Under the pieces are notes generated by a model, which saw only the letters and a program-made list of their open reading frames with translations, had not been told where the DNA came from and made no database searches. Position numbers and translations under genes: made by a program. Below are positions 321-10,992 of a stretch of 10,992 nt of DNA, in pieces. The stretch is taken from the IMG/VR virus record IMGVR_UViG_2698536573_000008. One strand, 5' to 3'. Source of the stretch: a virus. Lineage: Duplodnaviria; Heunggongvirae; Uroviricota; Caudoviricetes. The first letter of the stretch is position 1. Every line of letters starts with the position of its first letter.

Positions 321-602
321 CTACCTTTGCCTATTGCCGCCATTTAACCGGAAGGCGTTACCGTTCGGTTGCGCTATCCCCATGCGGTGTTGCGTTTCGG
401 TAACAGCTTTATGCAGGTCGCCAAAGTCCTCAGCCTTCACGGGCGGGCGCTTCACGTTCTCAAGACACGTTTCACGGCGGCGCTTTATCCATTCCCGATC
501 ATCGTCCTCGGTGCATAACAGCATGACTTCCATCCATCGCGCTGCGGCGCGTCGGTACAGCCCTTTTGCTTCCAGATCCTCGGCTTTACTGTCGTTTACC
601 AT
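321..602 (-). CDS. PerC-family transcriptional regulator-like protein (93 aa)
   Basis: ATG at 602-600, TAG at 323-321. Motifs LEAKGLYRRAAARWMEVML and REWIKRRRETCL resemble the conserved core of PerC/Pch-type small regulators. GGGGGAG RBS about 6 nt upstream. Confidence 0.7.
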   Translation of the reverse strand: MVNDSKAEDLEAKGLYRRAAARWMEVMLLCTEDDDREWIKRRRETCLENVKRPPVKAEDFGDLHKAVTETQHRMGIAQPNGNAFRLNGGNRQR

Positions 603-2124: not shown

Positions 2125-4566
2125 TCAATCATCACTCTGCCCGCTCTCCACACCGTAAGCGCGTGGCATGAACTCCTCAGCCTTCTCGTTATAGCCAACG
2201 TTGGTTTGCGCTCTGCCGTTAATGCTTCTCGTCAGGTAGCTGGCTCGGTACTCTTTTGCTGCTGATTTTATGGCGCGTGAAAACTTATTGACGGAAAGCG
2301 GTTTACCCAAACCGTGATACTCCATAAACGCCAGATAAAGATGATAAAGATACGTCCTCGGCTCTGGCTGGCCTGCCCATGTACCTCCGCCCATCATCAT
2401 GCCTTTGGGTTCGTTCATGAAAAAAAGCGCCGCACACATATCGACAACCGGATCCGTGCCGCTTTTAACCTCTAGCGCCTCCTGCGAATCGCGCTGCTCT
2501 AGTAATAGTGCCTTTGCTTTGTTCTGGTCGGCAAAGGTGGTTAGCAGGTGGCGGATAATCACCGGGATTTCTCGCCTGATTTTTGCGGTTAAATCCGGGT
2601 CTTTGTCTGCGTCTGATACCGGGTTATTAAACGGGAATATCACGCGGCGGCGGGCAATGCCCCCGTTTCGCTCCGTGAATGTCATCGGCTCGTTATTGGT
2701 TGCCATAACAACGGCATTTATCACGGTTGTGAACTGCTTTTCATATTTCCCATCAATCTCTACCGGATCGCCGCCCGTAATGGCTTTAATCCCCGCCCCC
2801 TCTCCAACATAGCGGGTCTGGTCAGGCATAATAATCAGGCTTTTTCCTACGAACTGCGCCCGTCCCCGTGCGGTGTCCAGCGTCATCATGCTACCGCTGG
2901 CGGTGTTGTGTTCACCTGCCAGCGTGGTTGCTATGCTGCTGAATACGGATTTCCCACTGCCGCCCTCGCCAGTTATCTCAATGAATAGCTGCCAGTCGTG
3001 ACGCTTCGCCAGCACCATAAACAAGGCTGCTTTGATACGCTCGGCCTTATGATGGTCGCCAGCCGTTGCATGATTCAGCCAACGGGTAAAATTGGGGGCG
3101 CTGGTGGTAATATTTTCCCCCAGCGCTGGCGGGGTGTAGGTGATCCCATTGTGGTTCATCAGCCAGTTACCCGGCGAGTGGGCGGAAAACGTCTGCGTAG
3201 CGAGGTCATAAACGCCGTTATCAAAACCAATCAGATCCCCGCTCCGCTCACCAATTACCGGTATTTGCAGCTTCATGGTTGCGACAACCGATTTAATCCC
3301 CTTTTCGGTGTAGTGGGCTTCGTGCTCGTCGAAAATTGCCACCATAACCCTTTCTAATTCGCTGTCTGGTAGCTTCACCCATACGCCAGATTCGTAGCAG
3401 TAAACAGTGCCACTATCAGGGTTAACCGCCAACATATCCCATCGAGATGAAAGCAACCGCGCTTTCTGGCTGGCTGCCATTTGTGCAATATCTCCGACAT
3501 CGGCTTTACGGCGGGATTTACCGCCCTCAATGGCTTGCAATCGCGGTTTCACGGCTTCCCCTTGAATCTGGTACATCGAATCGTTAAACGCAGCCGTAGC
3601 GACTTCCAGCCCGTTTTGCTGGCGGTAGTCGTCCCAGTCGGCTTTGTAGTCTGTCGGCGGCAGCGCCACCCAGCCAGCCACGGATAAGGCGGCTTTCTCT
3701 GCGGCATCTTTGCCCGTGTTCGCCTGGTCGTCCTGCTGGTGGTCGTTATCTGCGGCAATGATAATCTGCGTGGCTGGATATATCCGGCGCATCACTTCGG
3801 CAACGGGTAGCAGGTTGCCCGCGTCAATTGCTGCCACTGCCAGCGCGTCCGGGCGCATCAGGTGAACTGAAAGGGCCGTCGCCAGCCCCTCGGCAATTAA
3901 AACGCTCTGCGGCGATTCTGGCGCGTTTACGGCGTGATATGCCCCGCGCTTTGCTGAACCTGTCAGGAGTCGTTTATCTCCCTGCGGCGTGATGGTCTGC
4001 GCCGCCACTACTGCGCCGGATTCATCCACCAGCGGCAGGAGTAGCGAACCATCAGACATAACCGGGTAATTAAACCCGGTCAGCCCTTTTGATTGCAGGT
4101 AATCAGATTCGCCCTGTGTGACACTCTGGCGCATTCCGGCATACAGACGGGCAAACGTAGCCCTTCGCTGCTCTGCATCCTCTGCTGCCTGTTTCTGGCG
4201 CTCCTGCTCACGCTGCTGGCGGTCAGCTTCCAGTTGCTCTCTTCTATGGCTCGCTGCCACCGGGTCGGTTTCCGCTGCCCGGTAATCAATACCCAGCACA
4301 TCAGCGGCAAGCTGTGCCGCCTCCGTAGTGTCGCAGTTGTTCACCTTCTTAATCAGGTCTAAACCGTCACCAGCGCCACACTGATTGCAGATAAAGCTAC
4401 CGCGCCCGTTGTCGTCGAATCTGAAACGGTCTTTTCCACCACATGCAGGGCATGGAGAATGGCGGCGCGATGAATCAGGCACGTCGATAGACAATCCAGC
4501 CAGCACATAAGGCCAGCGCCCGGCGGCGGCACTGGTCACTTCGCGGATAAGGTCGATATTACGCAT
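2125..4566 (-). CDS. P4 alpha-like DNA primase / helicase (about 813 aa)
   Basis: Long minus ORF. Best start is ATG at 4566 preceded by AGGAGG; the ORF-track start at 4623 is GTG. N-terminal Cys-rich zinc-binding motif (CPACGG...CNQCG), TOPRIM-like acidic motifs (IAEGLATA, AADNDHQQDD), Walker A GEGGSGKS in the C-terminal helicase-like region. TGA at 2127-2125. Confidence 0.93.
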   Translation of the reverse strand: MRNIDLIREVTSAAAGRWPYVLAGLSIDVPDSSRRHSPCPACGGKDRFRFDDNGRGSFICNQCGAGDGLDLIKKVNNCDTTEAAQLAADVLGIDYRAAETDPVAASHRREQLEADRQQREQERQKQAAEDAEQRRATFARLYAGMRQSVTQGESDYLQSKGLTGFNYPVMSDGSLLLPLVDESGAVVAAQTITPQGDKRLLTGSAKRGAYHAVNAPESPQSVLIAEGLATALSVHLMRPDALAVAAIDAGNLLPVAEVMRRIYPATQIIIAADNDHQQDDQANTGKDAAEKAALSVAGWVALPPTDYKADWDDYRQQNGLEVATAAFNDSMYQIQGEAVKPRLQAIEGGKSRRKADVGDIAQMAASQKARLLSSRWDMLAVNPDSGTVYCYESGVWVKLPDSELERVMVAIFDEHEAHYTEKGIKSVVATMKLQIPVIGERSGDLIGFDNGVYDLATQTFSAHSPGNWLMNHNGITYTPPALGENITTSAPNFTRWLNHATAGDHHKAERIKAALFMVLAKRHDWQLFIEITGEGGSGKSVFSSIATTLAGEHNTASGSMMTLDTARGRAQFVGKSLIIMPDQTRYVGEGAGIKAITGGDPVEIDGKYEKQFTTVINAVVMATNNEPMTFTERNGGIARRRVIFPFNNPVSDADKDPDLTAKIRREIPVIIRHLLTTFADQNKAKALLLEQRDSQEALEVKSGTDPVVDMCAALFFMNEPKGMMMGGGTWAGQPEPRTYLYHLYLAFMEYHGLGKPLSVNKFSRAIKSAAKEYRASYLTRSINGRAQTNVGYNEKAEEFMPRAYGVESGQSDD

Positions 4567-4900
4567 GGTTGCCTCCTGCCACGGTCGCGCCCATGTCTTT
4601 AACCATGCTTTGCCATATCTCACGCCCGACGTCAGTCAATCCGTCATTAGTGACGCAACGCTCAAGAAGCTCGACCCCCACGGTTTCCCACTGCGGGTAG
4701 GACACTTTCATGGCTGCCAGTGTGTAGCTATCGATCAGGCTGCGAACGCCTTTTACTCCATTGACGATTTCCACACGGACGGCGAGGCCGTCCGCATCAA
4801 CCATGAAATAGTCACCGCCGCTGGTGGAGGTAATGTGGTTATACAGTGCCGACGCATACTTATTCGCCAGCGCATTCAGTCTGAAATTTTTAGTAATCAT
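4559..4900 (-). CDS. hypothetical protein (113 aa), upstream of and overlapping the primase start
   Basis: ATG at 4900-4898 with GGGGG RBS. TAA at 4561-4559 overlaps the primase ATG (ATGCGTAA). No recognisable motif. Confidence 0.6.
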   Translation of the reverse strand: MITKNFRLNALANKYASALYNHITSTSGGDYFMVDADGLAVRVEIVNGVKGVRSLIDSYTLAAMKVSYPQWETVGVELLERCVTNDGLTDVGREIWQSMVKDMGATVAGGNHA

Positions 4901-5796: not shown

Positions 5797-6107
5797 TTGC
5801 CCGCCCTCCCTTTGGCTTCTTTTTCACTGATTGAGCGCAAGAATGCGGCGTTTGCAGCGCTATCGTTCAGCGCCAGCGCAACTTCTCCGATATGTCCCAG
5901 CATTGCGCCTAATCTGTACATATCAGCCTTAGCGCTTTCCTCCGGGTAGCCATCGCTACCAGCCGCCCAGAACATGAGGCTACCAATGGCACTTACGCCC
6001 AGCATTAAATCATCCACGGCATCACTGGCGCAGCTCTCAATTCCTTTCAGATCATCAGGTGTACAACCATCAAATTTGCAGGACACTAAATCGTTATACA
6101 TGCTCAT
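5793..6107 (-). CDS. hypothetical protein (104 aa)
   Basis: ATG at 6107-6105, stop at 5795-5793. ATGA overlaps at both ends. Confidence 0.55.
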   Translation of the reverse strand: MSMYNDLVSCKFDGCTPDDLKGIESCASDAVDDLMLGVSAIGSLMFWAAGSDGYPEESAKADMYRLGAMLGHIGEVALALNDSAANAAFLRSISEKEAKGRAGK

Positions 6108-6283
6108 GCCGCCACCTCACGAACGCGGGTAATCTGGATGTGGGAAAGGCGTTCATTTCTGGCCTGATTTAGCGCCTCAGCTTTGGCGCTGATCGCGCTG
6201 CGGGCGTCAACGATATAAACGAACTCGACTAATTCGCCGCTCCGGGCGGTGGCGCATCCTGCAACACGGAAGTAATTAAGCAT
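6104..6283 (-). CDS. hypothetical small protein (59 aa)
   Basis: ATG at 6283-6281 preceded by GGGGG RBS (MLNYFRVAGC...). The longer track ORF 6104..6520 has an implausible N-terminal extension overlapping the adjacent gene in another frame. Confidence 0.45.
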   Translation of the reverse strand: MLNYFRVAGCATARSGELVEFVYIVDARSAISAKAEALNQARNERLSHIQITRVREVAA

Positions 6284-7187
6284 GTGCGCCCCCTGTGCGA
6301 ATACGTCCGGCAAAAAAGCAAACGTGATCCCGCGCCAGAATGCGGCGGGCTTCCTGCTCAGTCTCTGCGGCGATATGGTGAATTTTGACGGTAATTGTCG
6401 GCATATCGCGGCGAACTGCTGCGATAATCCAGATAAATTGCGGTTTTTGGGTAGGGGTAGTAGCCAGCATAGCGGCAGCCTCTGATTCATGGTTTTGAGA
6501 ACCACCACCGGAAACGCCAATTTCGCTGGTGGTGAACTGTACAGGGTTGGCGTAACCGGGAATCAGAGAAACCGGCGCGGATTGCTCCGCCCCCATACAG
6601 TCCACCATTGAACAGGTGTAACTGCGCGGCACAAAAAAACACGCATGGCGCGTGTTGTGCGCTCTGATAATTACCGGGACGCCAATCCCGACACCAGATT
6701 TTGCTGGTGCGCTATAACCATAAACCGGGTTGGCGATAGTCGGCAAGCCCTTTTTTATGGACTCCAGAAACTCACCTTCGCGCGTGCGCGTACTGTTGCA
6801 TAAATTCCCTGCATCTAGTGGTGATGTCAGAAAAATCTTCCCGCCTCGTGTAGTGATGATGGGAAAATCTTCCTCGCGTAGTGACCCCCAATAAATCTTC
6901 GTGCGCGTACTGGTCTCGAAACTCTCCTCGTCACCACGACGAGAAAATGAGGAGCTGGCATTAGCTGGCACTGTTATGCCAGCTTCGCATTCATGCGCGT
7001 GCGTACTTGTCCCGAAAACACCAAGATTTGTAAAGATCTGGCGGTGGCAAATGTCAGGTTTTGACAGGTTCCAAACGTCGCTATTTGTCGCAATCTGGCG
7101 GCGGGCTGCTTTGCTCCAGACGTTAACATTTGCATACATCAGGCCAGCCAGGGGAAAGGCTTTATTCTGGATGGCGGCATTAAGCAT
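6276..7187 (-). CDS. hypothetical protein, start uncertain (303 codons if started at 7187)
   Basis: C-terminal half (about 6279-6770) has protein-like sequence. The part encoded by about 6772-7105 is densely repetitive DNA and gives low-complexity S/T/R/G-rich translation. The ATG at 7187 overlaps the antirepressor stop (ATGCTTAA) with a GGGGG RBS, but the true start may be internal or non-ATG. Confidence 0.4.
   Translation of the reverse strand: MLNAAIQNKAFPLAGLMYANVNVWSKAARRQIATNSDVWNLSKPDICHRQIFTNLGVFGTSTHAHECEAGITVPANASSSFSRRGDEESFETSTRTKIYWGSLREEDFPIITTRGGKIFLTSPLDAGNLCNSTRTREGEFLESIKKGLPTIANPVYGYSAPAKSGVGIGVPVIIRAHNTRHACFFVPRSYTCSMVDCMGAEQSAPVSLIPGYANPVQFTTSEIGVSGGGSQNHESEAAAMLATTPTQKPQFIWIIAAVRRDMPTITVKIHHIAAETEQEARRILARDHVCFFAGRIRTGGAHA
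6772..6945. repeat. degenerate tandem repeat array, period about 26-32 bp, 5-7 units
   Basis: Units begin near 6772, 6803, 6833, 6865, 6893, 6919 with shared AAAT(C)TTC(C) plus GTAGTGA/GTACTG cores. Exact 13-mer CGTGCGCGTACTG at 6783-6795 and 6900-6912, with a variant GCGCGTGCGTACTTG near 6994-7008. Confidence 0.6.
6953..6984. promoter_or_regulatory. operator-like cluster: AGCTGGCA x2 direct plus inverted copy TGCCAGCT
   Basis: AGCTGGCA at 6953-6960 and 6963-6970; TGCCAGCT at 6977-6984. Copies 2 and 3 form a perfect 8-bp inverted repeat with a 6-nt spacer. Confidence 0.4.
7052..7070. promoter_or_regulatory. bipartite 19-nt motif TGTCAGGTTTTGACAGGTT (copy 2 of 2)
   Basis: 17/19 identical to 1796-1814; the two differences fall at the same relative position in each half-site. 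Flanked by a direct repeat ATTTGT-N4-ATCTGGCGG (7026-7044 and 7083-7101). Confidence 0.4.
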
Positions 7188-8013
7188 GATTAGCCCCCAG
7201 ATGTTTAGCTAACCAGCGCTGAGAGAGGCGGATTAGCTCGGCTTTACGCAGGTCATATCCCATACCCATATCAATTAACGTGATATTGGTGCTTTCGAGA
7301 TAGGCGAGGTGTTCAAGCTGTGCTGCGTTCATGCTGTCCCGTGGTTCGCCAGTAATGCCATTTGCCTGCGCCCACTGCTTCGCCGTCATGCCACCCAGCA
7401 CGATACGGGCGATCATGTTGCTCTCGTTGCTGTAGTGGCGCTGCTGCGTCGTTTTACCCAGCTCGGCACGGGCCATATTCAGCGCATCGCACATCGGCTT
7501 AAAGTTGTTTGCGGCACTGATACGGGCTTTTAGCTGGCGACGATAGCGGGCGGCGATTTCAGGCACGCTACGCTGTAATTCTTCCTCGCACTGGATGAAA
7601 TAACGACGGATAGCGCGACCCTGATCATTGCGTTCGATCATTGCCAGTTCTTTCGCCATTCCGACACTTAACAGATAGTCTTTGCCGGGTCTGCCAGACT
7701 GCTTAATCTTGCTGTAAGCCGCGCCATTCGGGCTTTTCCCCAGATTTGGGGAAATTGTTTTATGGACTGAGTAATCGTGCCCAATGGTGAAGTCATATTC
7801 AGAGATGCGATCAGTGATCCATGTAGAGAAGTCTTTTCCCACGCCCAACGCTTTGTGTAACGCTTTTGCGCTAACAATATTGGTTTCACGCCCACCGATA
7901 TGACCAGGAATAACCGGGACAATTGTGGCAAATTCATTACCGTTAATTGTTCCCTGATAGGCGTTCAGATGAGGGGCGGCCTCAGAAATTAATCTGCTTT
8001 TTTCGATGTTCAT
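7180..8013 (-). CDS. phage antirepressor-like protein with AntA/Rha-type N-terminal domain (277 aa)
   Basis: ATG at 8013-8011, TAA at 7182-7180. N-terminal SAKALHKALGVGKDFSTWITDRISEYDFTIGHDY ... GRPGKDYLLSVGMAKELAMIE resembles the AntA/Rha antirepressor domain. C-terminal half unassigned. Confidence 0.65.
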   Translation of the reverse strand: MNIEKSRLISEAAPHLNAYQGTINGNEFATIVPVIPGHIGGRETNIVSAKALHKALGVGKDFSTWITDRISEYDFTIGHDYSVHKTISPNLGKSPNGAAYSKIKQSGRPGKDYLLSVGMAKELAMIERNDQGRAIRRYFIQCEEELQRSVPEIAARYRRQLKARISAANNFKPMCDALNMARAELGKTTQQRHYSNESNMIARIVLGGMTAKQWAQANGITGEPRDSMNAAQLEHLAYLESTNITLIDMGMGYDLRKAELIRLSQRWLAKHLGANHA

Positions 8014-8025
8014 TTTCAGTCTCCG

Positions 8026-8460
8026 TTAGGCGGCGGTGAGATTGTCCGGGTATAGGTTGAGAATGTCGGCAATTTCAGGCTGAGAAAGTCCCTGATAGCC
8101 GCCAGCGTCGGCGTTATGGTTCACAAGCCGAATAACTTTTAGAACGTCACCGCGCCCGGTAAAGCGATAGCGTAAATGTGACCCTATCCCGTCGGGGTTC
8201 TTTTCGTCTATACGCTCAAGCTGAATATCAAGCCTGCGCTCTAACTCGCTGGCGTAGTTCCTTCCAGATGAAAGGCGGCAATATCGCAGAATGTCGTTTT
8301 CTGTCCATCCCTCTACGCCAGTACGCAGCATATAGACGCGGGCGCGGTGTTTCTTTGGGGTTCGCTTAGGTACTTGTACCGGGCTGGTGGTCGGCGTAAT
8401 ATCAGACGTGCGAATATCTGAGTTAGCCGCCTGCTGTACGGGGCGGTTTTTCTTTTTCAT
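8026..8460 (-). CDS. hypothetical protein (144 aa), basic N-terminus
   Basis: ATG at 8460-8458 overlapping the AlpA stop (TAATG). Lys/Arg/Pro-rich N-terminal region. No motif recognised. Confidence 0.6.
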   Translation of the reverse strand: MKKKNRPVQQAANSDIRTSDITPTTSPVQVPKRTPKKHRARVYMLRTGVEGWTENDILRYCRLSSGRNYASELERRLDIQLERIDEKNPDGIGSHLRYRFTGRGDVLKVIRLVNHNADAGGYQGLSQPEIADILNLYPDNLTAA

Positions 8461-8663
8461 TACGCCACCTTTCCCCGGCGCTCCGCCAGCCAGTTATTAA
8501 TCTCTACCGCATCAAAGGCGGTAATCTTCTCCCCCAGCTTTACCGGGCGCGGTAGCGAGCCGCTGCGAACTTTGCGATCAATGGTTGAAACACTAACGCC
8601 CAGCAATTCAGCAAGGCGGAAGCGTCTGATATAGCCTTTTGTAGGGATAGTGTCGATGTTCAT
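8460..8663 (-). CDS. alpA: AlpA-family phage transcriptional regulator / excisionase-like HTH protein (67 aa)
   Basis: ATG at 8663-8661, TAA at 8462-8460. HTH region LAELLGVSVSTIDRKVRSGSLPRPVKLGEKITAFDAVEINNWL matches the AlpA/excisionase-family pattern. Position after int is typical of P4-like and PICI elements. Confidence 0.8.
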   Translation of the reverse strand: MNIDTIPTKGYIRRFRLAELLGVSVSTIDRKVRSGSLPRPVKLGEKITAFDAVEINNWLAERRGKVA

Positions 8664-8735
8664 GATTCCCGTAACCTCTTAGCGGTAGTTGTTGCTTCGT
8701 TACGAGAAATCTAGCTGTATAGATATACAATGAAA

Positions 8736-8759
8736 AGGTACTGTAATTTTGCAGTACCT
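8736..8759 (-). terminator. hairpin, possible intrinsic terminator after the 316-aa gene (or operator upstream of alpA)
   Basis: Perfect 8-bp inverted repeat AGGTACTG (8736-8743) / CAGTACCT (8752-8759) with an 8-nt loop, followed on the minus strand by a U-rich tract (TTTTCATTGTAT). Lies in the 106-bp gap between the 316-aa gene stop and the alpA start. Confidence 0.35.
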
Positions 8760-8769
8760 CTATAGCAAG

Positions 8770-9720
8770 TTAACTATCCACTTTGCCATTTGCCGCAGAT
8801 CGCAGCTGTTTAAGAATTACATCTTCATTAGTTATCATAAGTGGTGGAACTTCGTCTAAATGACGAACAAGACAGTCACGCCACTTCTCAGGGCTTATTT
8901 CTTTCCTTACTCCCCTGCATTCATTTGGATACTTACTAAGTATATAAATTGCAGATTTTAATAGTTTCTCCCTATTGACTGCGTACCGTTCGGCACGTTT
9001 ATTAACTTTTAGCGTATTTATATCATTGGATAACTTGTTTGCGGGTGGTTTGTGCATGGGTCTGTCATAAATATATTTTCCTCCATTTATAAGAAGATTG
9101 TATTCATAGTCAGTTATATACATTTTATTTCGGCTTATTTCATACCAGCCGTCAATATAAAAAGCTCCGATTTCATAATTATTCGATTTGCTAAACTCGT
9201 CACATCTCGGAGGCGTCAGTTCGCATACGGAGATCTCCCAATCATCCCATTCTGATAGCTCCCGCTCATCGTTATCTATGAACGCAGACGGAATTGCTAA
9301 TAGACCGTTCCATCTTTCGATATCTCTTTCATCCTTCCCAACATTGTATCGCTCTATAACTGAGAAATGTTCTGATTTGTATGAAAACCTCATAAAATAC
9401 ATATGGTTATCGCTATTTTTATAATCAAGCGGTGATAAGCCATATGATTCGAGATTATCTGCCTCATTGCTCAGATTAAGAAGATAATTCTCATGTGCTG
9501 CTTTTGTATCTATATGAAAAATACTATCTGTTTCAACTTTAAGTAATTCTGGGTCGGCATCTTCATTTTTGGGGTAATGGTAAAACAATTCAATAGGTGG
9601 AATTTTTATACATATTTCTAAAACCCCAATTGCTGCATAGTGTATTAAATCGGATACTTCACATCCGGCCAGTTTGGCTGCTTTATCCAAAGAATAATAT
9701 TTATGCGCAGGTAATTTCAT
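8770..9720 (-). CDS. AT-rich orphan protein (316 aa), possible N-terminal HTH; candidate accessory or anti-phage cargo
   Basis: ATG at 9720-9718 (GAGAGGAAAG upstream), TAA at 8772-8770. Hand-counted GC about 23-37% in sampled 60-nt blocks versus about 60% in the primase. N-terminal YYSLDKAAKLAGCEVSDLIHYAAIGVL resembles an excisionase/MerR-type HTH. The rest is acidic and Tyr/Trp-rich with no catalytic motif recognised. Starts 18 nt after the integrase stop. Confidence 0.8.
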   Translation of the reverse strand: MKLPAHKYYSLDKAAKLAGCEVSDLIHYAAIGVLEICIKIPPIELFYHYPKNEDADPELLKVETDSIFHIDTKAAHENYLLNLSNEADNLESYGLSPLDYKNSDNHMYFMRFSYKSEHFSVIERYNVGKDERDIERWNGLLAIPSAFIDNDERELSEWDDWEISVCELTPPRCDEFSKSNNYEIGAFYIDGWYEISRNKMYITDYEYNLLINGGKYIYDRPMHKPPANKLSNDINTLKVNKRAERYAVNREKLLKSAIYILSKYPNECRGVRKEISPEKWRDCLVRHLDEVPPLMITNEDVILKQLRSAANGKVDS

Positions 9721-9738
9721 TATGAATCTTTCCTCTCA

Positions 9739-10992
9739 TCATGCTCTGATTGGCGTTACGTTGTAGTCTTTTCCGCTTTCCAGTGCCACCAGCAAATCAC
9801 ACCACTGCGCCAGCGCCGCTTTACGCTCATCAAAATACTGGTGACGGTTATAGATACCTTCCACGCCTTTAATTTTGTGATTAAGGCATCTTTCTGCGAC
9901 TACCGGATCAACGCCCAGCGCTGCTAAATGAGTACGTGCGGTGCGTCGGAAGTCGTGAATCGTGAAATTAGGCACATCAGGCATTTCAGCGCGAACCTTA
10001 GCCAGTGCTACGGGTAAAGTGCTTTCCTGAATATGTGGGATCATTCTGTTTTGCATCTTCCTGGCTGGAAGCACCCATGCGCTGTTGCATGAGAACGTTT
10101 TAAGCTCTCTCAGCCATTCGACGGCTGGCGGTGCTAATGGGATGTCTATAGCGTCGCCGTTTTTGCTGCGTTCCTCTGGTAAATGCCATACGGCTTTATC
10201 AAAATCGAACTCCTCCCAGCGGGCGGCGCATAACTCCATTTTGCGGACGCATAACGCTAACAGTAATTTGAACGTGATTTCGTTCTGACGGCTGAATCCC
10301 TTAGCCGTGCGCATAGCCTGAAACAGTCGGATTAGTTCGCCACGTGTTAACCAGCGGTCGCGGGAAACTTCTTTCCCTCCGGCGTCTGCCACCTCAAAGG
10401 CTGAACACGGGTTAATCTCCAGTGCGTGCCGCTTAATGCCGTAGTCAAATATGCGGCGTGTCCAGCGCAGAACGTCCGTTGCTATGGTCGGCGCTCCACG
10501 GTCAACAATACTTTTCAGCATGTCGTCGATATGGCGCGGCTTCACGTCCTCCACCTTCATGCTGCCAATGCATGGGTTTATATCTTTGTCGATACGGCGG
10601 CGGAGTATATCGGGGTGCTTCCAGCGCGGGAGGATCTGACGCTCAAAGTATTCAGCGGCAAGCTCTGAAACGCGCATAGCGTTCTTCTCTGCTTCCATCT
10701 TCGCCAGTGCTTCGGTTTTGCGCTTCTGCTTCTCTCCTGCAACGTCATAGCCCAGCGCAACGCGAGCCGATAGCTCTTTGGCTGTCTCTCTGGCCTTTGA
10801 TAGTGATAGCTCGGCATATGAGCCAATCAGCATGGCGCGGGGTTTCCCTGCGAATTTATAGCGGAATCGCCAGACGGGGGTCTGGTAGTTTTCGCGGTAT
10901 GAAAGATAAAGCCCGTTACCGTCAGAGCGTCCCTCGAATCGCTCCCCGGCCTTTATCCATGCGCGGATCTGCATGTCTGTGAGTTTTGGCAT
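9739..10992 (-). CDS. int: P4-type tyrosine integrase (417 aa)
   Basis: ATG at 10992-10990 (window edge), TGA at 9741-9739. N-terminal arm-binding-type motifs (DGNGLYLSY, WRFRYKFAGKPR, LSLSKARE). C-terminal catalytic region HDFRRTARTHL with tyrosine in GIYNRHQY. Confidence 0.93.
   Translation of the reverse strand: MPKLTDMQIRAWIKAGERFEGRSDGNGLYLSYRENYQTPVWRFRYKFAGKPRAMLIGSYAELSLSKARETAKELSARVALGYDVAGEKQKRKTEALAKMEAEKNAMRVSELAAEYFERQILPRWKHPDILRRRIDKDINPCIGSMKVEDVKPRHIDDMLKSIVDRGAPTIATDVLRWTRRIFDYGIKRHALEINPCSAFEVADAGGKEVSRDRWLTRGELIRLFQAMRTAKGFSRQNEITFKLLLALCVRKMELCAARWEEFDFDKAVWHLPEERSKNGDAIDIPLAPPAVEWLRELKTFSCNSAWVLPARKMQNRMIPHIQESTLPVALAKVRAEMPDVPNFTIHDFRRTARTHLAALGVDPVVAERCLNHKIKGVEGIYNRHQYFDERKAALAQWCDLLVALESGKDYNVTPIRA

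Follow-up and report, generated by a model that had tools for sequence, protein, structure and literature searches.

Immunity of the satellite phage P4 depends on nested genes, eta and kil (Forti et al. 1999, J Bacteriol 181:5225, summarised in PMC10111431). According to this summary, a constitutive promoter inside eta gives rise to an early-terminating transcript that yields the CI RNA, Kil is a truncated form of Eta, and full-length Eta is translated only from the upstream late promoter, coupled to an alpA homologue; translation of Eta prevents termination. IsrK is a structural homologue of the P4 SeqA RNA, according to PMC4825925. Here, a repeat-dense region at positions 6772-7105 was analysed in a stretch of 10,992 nucleotides (nt) of the Caudoviricetes (IMG/VR record IMGVR_UViG_2698536573_000008; in the following, the window). 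The window was 100% identical to a stretch of the E. coli M9682-C1 chromosome, within an island adjoining yicC, and, by its gene order, is a P4-like integrative satellite. The genes of the island, including the integrase, alpA, the open reading frame (ORF) 6276-7187 overlapped by the repeats, and the primase, are all on the - strand. As judged by its architecture, this 303-codon ORF is the counterpart of P4 eta/kil, and the repeat region is best explained, with good confidence, as the 5' part, distal to the promoter, of a read-through frame of Eta type within a P4-like immunity locus. The features of the locus are:

6276..7187, - strand: Eta-type read-through frame of 303 codons, spanning the predicted promoter, the RNAs and kil, with the architecture of P4 eta (8168-8812); PGAP annotation 'host cell division inhibitor Icd-like protein'
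7180..7187, - strand: overlap ATGCTTAA of the long-frame start with the antA/antB stop, GGGGG before it; translational-coupling junction
7026..7104, - strand: 57-nt (19-codon) direct repeat, ATTTGT-N4-ATCTGGCGG on the + strand and CCGCCAGAT..ACAAAT on the - strand
6900..6986, - strand: block A, module of 87 nt with nucleotide-level constraint
6783..6912, - strand: 117-nt (39-codon) cassette with two exact 13-mers as its edges and degenerate ~30-nt units, GAAGRTTTTYC...ATCACYAC
6747..6782, - strand: last repeat unit and A6 tract (CCATAAAAAAGGGC), abutting the -35 hexamer; UP element-like
6717..6746, - strand: putative internal PLE-type sigma-70 promoter, -35 TTGCCG at 6746-6741, 18-nt spacer, -10 TATGGT at 6722-6717, start near G6710
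6634-6710, - strand: isrK / seqA-like RNA (Rfam isrK, 81.1 bits; gathering threshold 50)
6671-6723, - strand: c4-a1b1 targets of C4 (Rfam, 45.1 bits, just under the gathering threshold of 46.7)
6685-6679 and 6668-6662, - strand: b1 (UUGGCGU) and a1 (AUCAGAG), within the IsrK/seqA-like RNA
6638-6656, - strand: intrinsic terminator closing IsrK, followed by a U run
6525..6612, - strand: C4 / P4-CI-type antisense immunity RNA (RF01695, 76.7 bits; gathering threshold 45)
6568-6560 and 6553-6547, - strand: C4 loops a' (CUCUGAUUC) and b' (ACGCCAA)
6520-6514 and 6488-6480, - strand: b2 and a2 (GAAUCAGAG); a2 overlaps the GAGG ribosome-binding site at 6482-6479
6276-6470, - strand: 64-codon Kil/Icd-like gene, ATG 6470-6468, stop 6276-6278

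The preliminary description of the region had missed the IsrK/c4-a1b1 and C4 RNA genes within the same ORF. When the - strand sequence was read directly, the C4 loops were complementary to the a1/b1 and a2/b2 site pairs, and the GAGG ribosome-binding site was located 8 nt before the in-frame ATG at 6470. The same three Rfam models also matched P4 (NC_001609), with their order unchanged, within a frame of 214 codons (8168-8812), where CI reached 74.9 bits with RF01695; this frame overlaps the end of orf88/vis, and its C-terminal 65 codons are Icd-like. Aligned over their C-terminal halves, P4 Eta and the frame in the window were 35% identical, and the NCBIfam Icd-like model NF033153 matched only the C-terminal 48 residues in both, covering residues 251-298 of the window ORF. 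P4 also carries TTGCCT-18-TATAGT directly 5' of a1b1, read as PLE, and TTGCCG-18-TATGGT of the window is placed alike, which is a match of sequence only. In the isrK model, position 1 corresponds to 6710, 7 nt downstream of TATGGT; the internal promoter is predicted from this distance and from hexamers placed as in P4. The region 6772-7105 lies entirely upstream of the predicted promoter.

The locus combines several elements by which P4-type immunity is recognised, i.e. a C4/CI RNA in the leader of the replication operon, both target pairs, an RNA-spanning frame ending in Kil, and coupling. Its likeness to P4 extends, with the parts in one and the same order, over the upstream gene, the coupled frame, the predicted promoter, a1b1/seqA, C4/CI, the ribosome-binding-site target and the 64-65-residue Kil/Icd-like end, and also over the replication operon with a P4-family primase downstream. 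In P4, however, about 85-105 nt of the frame are situated upstream of the promoter and repeat modules are absent, whereas the window has about 440 nt with block A and the 57/117-nt cassettes. The coupled upstream gene is vis in P4, but antA/B in the window and DUF4222 in relatives. The locus is a P4-type RNA immunity system with nested eta/kil, which is a known system, and carries an unusually long, cassette-built 5' extension.

The immI operon of P1/P7 (a1b1, c4 RNA, a2b2, icd, ant) resembles the locus in its C4-family RNA, in its two target pairs, the second of which lies over an Icd-like ribosome-binding site, and in having an antirepressor-family gene in the unit. It differs in that ant of the window is located upstream of the RNA cassette and the downstream genes are replication genes, so that the functions under control are P4-like and not P1-like; moreover, a C1-type operator was not identified in the window. 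The Salmonella Gifsy-1 locus isrK-orf45-anrP (PMC4825925) resembles the locus in a 77-nt RNA of IsrK type that has a promoter of its own, which in the window is a predicted one, and ends in a leaky intrinsic terminator. There, however, IsrK activates translation of the downstream antirepressor (PMC4825925), whereas the cassette of the window lies inside a long coupled frame, upstream of the primase operon.

Coding capacity upstream of the promoter was assessed across related loci, which were collected as relatives in E. coli genomes, via the N-terminal translation (12 loci of other genera, namely Atlantibacter, Kosakonia, Enterobacter, Scandinavium, Lonsdalea, Cedecea, Pluralibacter and Serratia), and from viral/metagenome contigs with the promoter motif. 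A match in a Bacillota metagenome-assembled genome (E = 3e-5, query residues 45-84) looked spurious and was left out. In 44 of the 48 distinct untruncated loci, no stop interrupted the frame over 190 nt or more 5' of the -35 hexamer and from there to the end of kil. In nearly all 48 its start overlapped or abutted the stop of the upstream gene, mostly after GGAGG, with ATGCTTAA, TAATG, ATGA or GTGA as the overlaps; the gene coupled in this way varied between ant, a gene of about 600 nt and DUF4222. Upstream of the promoter, a set of 12 loci contained 0 stops in this frame vs 72 and 101 in the other two, and the chance of 147 open codons at the base composition of the window is about 8e-4.

Variation by codon position differed along the frame. 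Variable sites in kil were distributed 9/11/34 over the three codon positions (24 synonymous-only vs 15 amino-acid-changing codons), whereas residues 63-146 gave 24/26/21 (4 synonymous-only vs 38 amino-acid-changing codons); the RNA parts of the frame were equally flat. In one set of 34 loci, kil had a mean pairwise diversity of 0.047/0.039/0.184 and block A one of 0.053/0.043/0.039, the third positions of block A being about four- to five-fold less diverse than those of kil. Removal of the anchor codons did not change the outcome (kil 0.057/0.042/0.187 vs block A 0.065/0.053/0.048). The 117-nt cassette gave 0.024/0.021/0.008. Purifying selection over the whole 303-residue length was not found, an excess at third positions being confined to the C-terminal end. 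Third positions upstream of the promoter thus varied less than in kil, and constraint on this part appears to act on nucleotides. Judged by codon positions, amino-acid selection is confined to the last ~62-64 codons (Kil/Icd-like), and the upstream part is kept open and coupled without amino-acid selection.

The repeats themselves were all found as first described. The exact 13-mer CGTGCGCGTACTG is present at 6783-6795 and 6900-6912; at 6996-7008 it recurs in degenerate form, with 3 mismatches and 82% identity over 22 nt. The proposed array of about 30-nt period consisted of three units (6808-6899) spaced 32 and 28 nt apart, with identities of 72% and 63%. It received no TRF score in the window; its homologue in a relative from Serratia fonticola was scored by TRF with period 33, 2.9 copies and score 99. 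In Serratia, 33-nt units in frame make up the array, and ...CAACAGTACGCGCGCGCGTGAGGTTGAGTTTCTTGAGTCCATAAAAAAGGGC follows them as it does in the window. Each ~30-nt unit is preceded by ACGCG, and the 13-mers are the ACGCG ends of units. One copy of the unit is translated as EDFPIIT and its neighbours as KIYWGSL / KIFLTSP, i.e. in two frames, which shows that the similarity is at the level of DNA and not of the peptide. The triple AGCTGGCA site was confirmed at 6953, 6963 (+) and 6977 (-). The window has no further copy, and three were reached in just 2 of 200 shuffles. The perfect 8-bp hairpin at 6963-6984 and the direct repeat at 7026-7047 and 7083-7104, with a spacing of 57 nt, were likewise present. 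Both copies of the latter flank a palindrome, TGTCAGGTTTTGACA (7053-7067), conserved in 4 of 5 relatives. Block A comprises GCTGGCA-N6-TGCCAGC-N3-TGCCAGC, with 10 nt from the start of one direct TGCCAGC copy to that of the other; next come a CUCGUC/GACGAG hairpin and the terminal 13-mer CAGTACGCGCACG.

Searches for known elements among the repeats gave negative results: Rfam had no match at E<=1 over 6724-7187, and no TGT-N12-ACA (Delta/Ogr-type) sites were present near the region. A search of a phage collection returned matches only to the RNA part of the ORF and none to 6772-7105. A sigma-54 site was considered by eye for TGGCAC-N-TGCC (+ strand) and dropped, the GG-GC spacing being one base short, and pairing of C4/IsrK with the upstream leader was rejected because RNAduplex duplexes were no better than those of 200 shuffles.

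Among relatives, the modules proved to be variable in length but fixed in place. The 117-nt cassette was absent from two loci otherwise near-identical to the window (L003 and L060) and from L011-L016; a 105-nt variant took its place in other relatives, and the 57-nt repeat was single-copy in L036 and L064. All cassette length changes were multiples of three. With no third-position excess and one unit read in two frames, the repeats are best regarded as DNA-level, in-frame cassettes. Throughout 466 kb of related loci, the ~30-nt unit and the core of block A were confined to at most 300 nt upstream of the promoter. Block A was retained in 39 loci of at least five genera, beside quite different flanks. 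Positions 6747-6782 were almost invariant among relatives, a conservation biased by the way in which loci were collected, because part of this stretch served as a search anchor.

Two variant loci were also observed. In Serratia fonticola (L018, 2342-4513), the repeat-bearing frame continues into a 723-codon ORF with a replication protein-like C-terminal part, and no intact PLE motif is present; fusion or degradation of the locus may account for this. In Cedecea davisae (L016, 2501-3514), the promoter-adjacent unit is doubled (EFLESIKK EFSDSIKK), the frame is open for 352 codons and the TTGCCG...TATGGT promoter motif is replaced.

By analogy with P4, the locus would operate in two states. In the quiescent state, the internal promoter would give short RNAs feeding IsrK/seqA and C4; C4 would pair with a1/b1 and, over the kil ribosome-binding site, with a2/b2, leaving kil untranslated, and transcription would end before the primase. 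Upon induction, transcripts from a promoter upstream of alpA would be translated through ant and the frame, and ribosomes crossing the promoter, seqA, C4 and a2b2 would block RNA pairing and Rho loading, thereby turning on the replication genes. A frame that need only stay open would explain both the family-less translation and the 57/117-nt lengths, which are multiples of three. As to the repeats, our best guess is that the A-tract, the ~30-nt units and block A are regulatory or binding sites which tune the immunity promoter. A more specific version, in which block A, with three TGCCAGC sites of which two are a helical turn apart, and the phased ~30-nt units form an operator array for a helper-phage, host or element protein that would set the output of the immunity promoter, or else an RNA element of the late transcript, is put forward only tentatively. 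Block A may act as DNA or as RNA: its substitutions were few and not compensatory, and its fold z-score was -1.9.

Several observations weigh against an Eta-type frame with regulatory sites at its 5' end. A sigma-70 consensus scan of 6700-7200 on both strands called no promoter, and the predicted internal promoter is a weak consensus match, agreeing at 8/12 positions. No neighbouring protein was found to co-occur with block A, no trans-acting factor binding the repeats was identified, and changes in the hairpin were uncompensated in Lonsdalea, Cedecea and L003. Furthermore, the loci were chosen by sequence anchors, which biases diversity downward, and the low diversity of the cassettes could stem from their recent exchange instead of constraint. 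In the main alternative, the repeats have no function of their own, being slippage or recombination scars in a spacer that need only be stop-free, and their near-identity reflects recent cassette exchange. This alternative is less likely but has some support: the cassettes lie between short direct repeats, near-identical elements differ in having them, the modules are either near-identical or unrecognisable, as in a mosaic, neither a binding factor nor covariation was found, and P4 functions with about 85 nt upstream of PLE. However, block A was kept in all those loci and genera, in which third-position diversity of kil reached 0.18, the ~30-nt unit can be recognised in E. coli and as far as Serratia regardless of reading frame, and the modules invariably abut the promoter. 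That the whole 303-residue product is instead a genuine protein, with the repeats encoding a repetitive N-terminal domain of an Icd-like/Bro-network protein, is very unlikely. The frame is indeed open, with a length class conserved across genera, tblastn finds relatives at 38-67% identity, and two Serratia EGFSDITTR units differ at synonymous third positions only. Yet the codon-position counts upstream of the promoter, the low third-position diversity of block A and the single DNA unit read in two frames within the window all argue against a protein, and the N-terminal 148 residues matched no family in Pfam, NCBIfam or PHROGs. Two RNA genes, in translation, make up the middle of this 'protein'; Pfam Phage_ASH ('Ash protein family', PF10554) matches residues 157-250, i.e. 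window 6437-6719, the translation of IsrK/a1b1 and C4.

The preliminary description had offered non-coding regulatory or origin DNA, or binding sites embedded in a coding sequence, as the nature of the 5' part of the ORF, and had seen in the repeats and the iterons after the primase a bipartite layout like that of P4 ori and crr. Its view of non-coding 5' sequence, or of DNA elements in an open frame, is supported: the first ~440 nt of the ORF are not protein-like, lacking a third-position excess, with units conserved as DNA and one of them read in two frames, and the opposite pattern, a clear coding signature with no conservation of the repeats at the DNA level, was looked for and not found. 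The replication role is not supported. The region is located not about 5 kb but ~2.2-2.5 kb upstream of the primase start, and ~4.7-5.2 kb from the iterons beyond the primase 3' end. The idea that it is a second cis replication site, bound by the primase and forming a bipartite origin with those iterons, can draw on its density of repeats and on this distance, which resembles that between P4 ori and crr. The likeness ends with this rough spacing and with repeats at two places flanking the primase, and the idea is extremely unlikely to be correct. Octamer iterons are common to P4 ori and crr, but here the iteron GTAGGGATAA clusters only at 1858-2107, just past the primase 3' end (9 copies in both orientations, <=2 mismatches allowed), and 6772-7105 contained just one chance-level match with 2 mismatches. 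The GC content of 6772-7105 is 48-52% (0.485-0.515) vs 41-43% at the iteron cluster, so that an AT-rich stretch is missing, and no DnaA box was found there. The position is also wrong by synteny: P4 ori, at 9086-9809, lies beyond orf88/vis (the alpA homologue) and not between alpA and the immunity RNAs, whereas the repeat region lies downstream of alpA and ant, and the P4 stretch syntenic to it falls in the start of eta, immediately 5' of PLE. Finally, close relatives do without the repeat cassettes. The iteron cluster at 1858-2107 is likely the replication origin of the element. A single iteron copy with 1 mismatch (GTAGGGATAG) was also observed at 8641-8650, inside the start of alpA; it may be due to chance or be a further primase site, placed like P4 ori.

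The other genes of the island, in gene order, are:

9739-10992, - strand: integrase
after the integrase, - strand: 316-residue hypothetical protein
8460-8663, - strand: AlpA
8026-8460, - strand: PM1773-family protein
7180-8013, - strand: AntA/AntB (antA/antB)
between the 303-codon ORF and the primase, - strand: five small overlapping genes
2125-4566, - strand: P4-family primase (PGAP; start at 4623 if the longest ORF is taken)

Beyond the primase and the iterons, at the island's far end, a gene for a PerC-family transcriptional regulator was noted at 321-602 (- strand). The 59-residue gene that follows kil (6104-6283) was 92-98% conserved in many loci without block A and missing from most loci bearing it, the near-identical copies of the window excepted; from this distribution, the window seems to be a recombinant of two module sets. 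Annotation by PGAP was inconsistent at this locus. Some genomes carried one 'Icd-like protein' of 241-303 residues, others a pseudogenised 'ash family protein' and a separate 64-residue Icd-like protein, e.g. E. coli NT1F10 (L005, 1988-2773). Several PHROG 'transcriptional regulator' matches also fell on the translated IsrK/a1b1 and C4 RNA genes. As the residues matched are translations of RNA genes without codon-position bias, the Ash and PHROG families appear to be built largely on RNA genes.

These results correct the annotation of the locus, in that the '303-aa Icd-like protein' and its Pfam 'Ash' match are mostly translations of a predicted promoter and two RNA genes, only 64 codons of the '303-aa' product behaving as protein, and they remove a false origin call. 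The 48 distinct loci give comparative support to the idea, developed for P4, that selection on a frame may do no more than keep it open and coupled, with ribosomes overriding RNA-based immunity. The 87-nt block and the family of ~30-nt units, conserved as nucleotides upstream of the immunity promoter, provide targets for finding the control of satellite immunity. If the operator array or RNA element proposed above is real, it would represent a previously undescribed input to P4-type RNA immunity, the strength of which would be tunable by in-frame gain and loss of cassettes.

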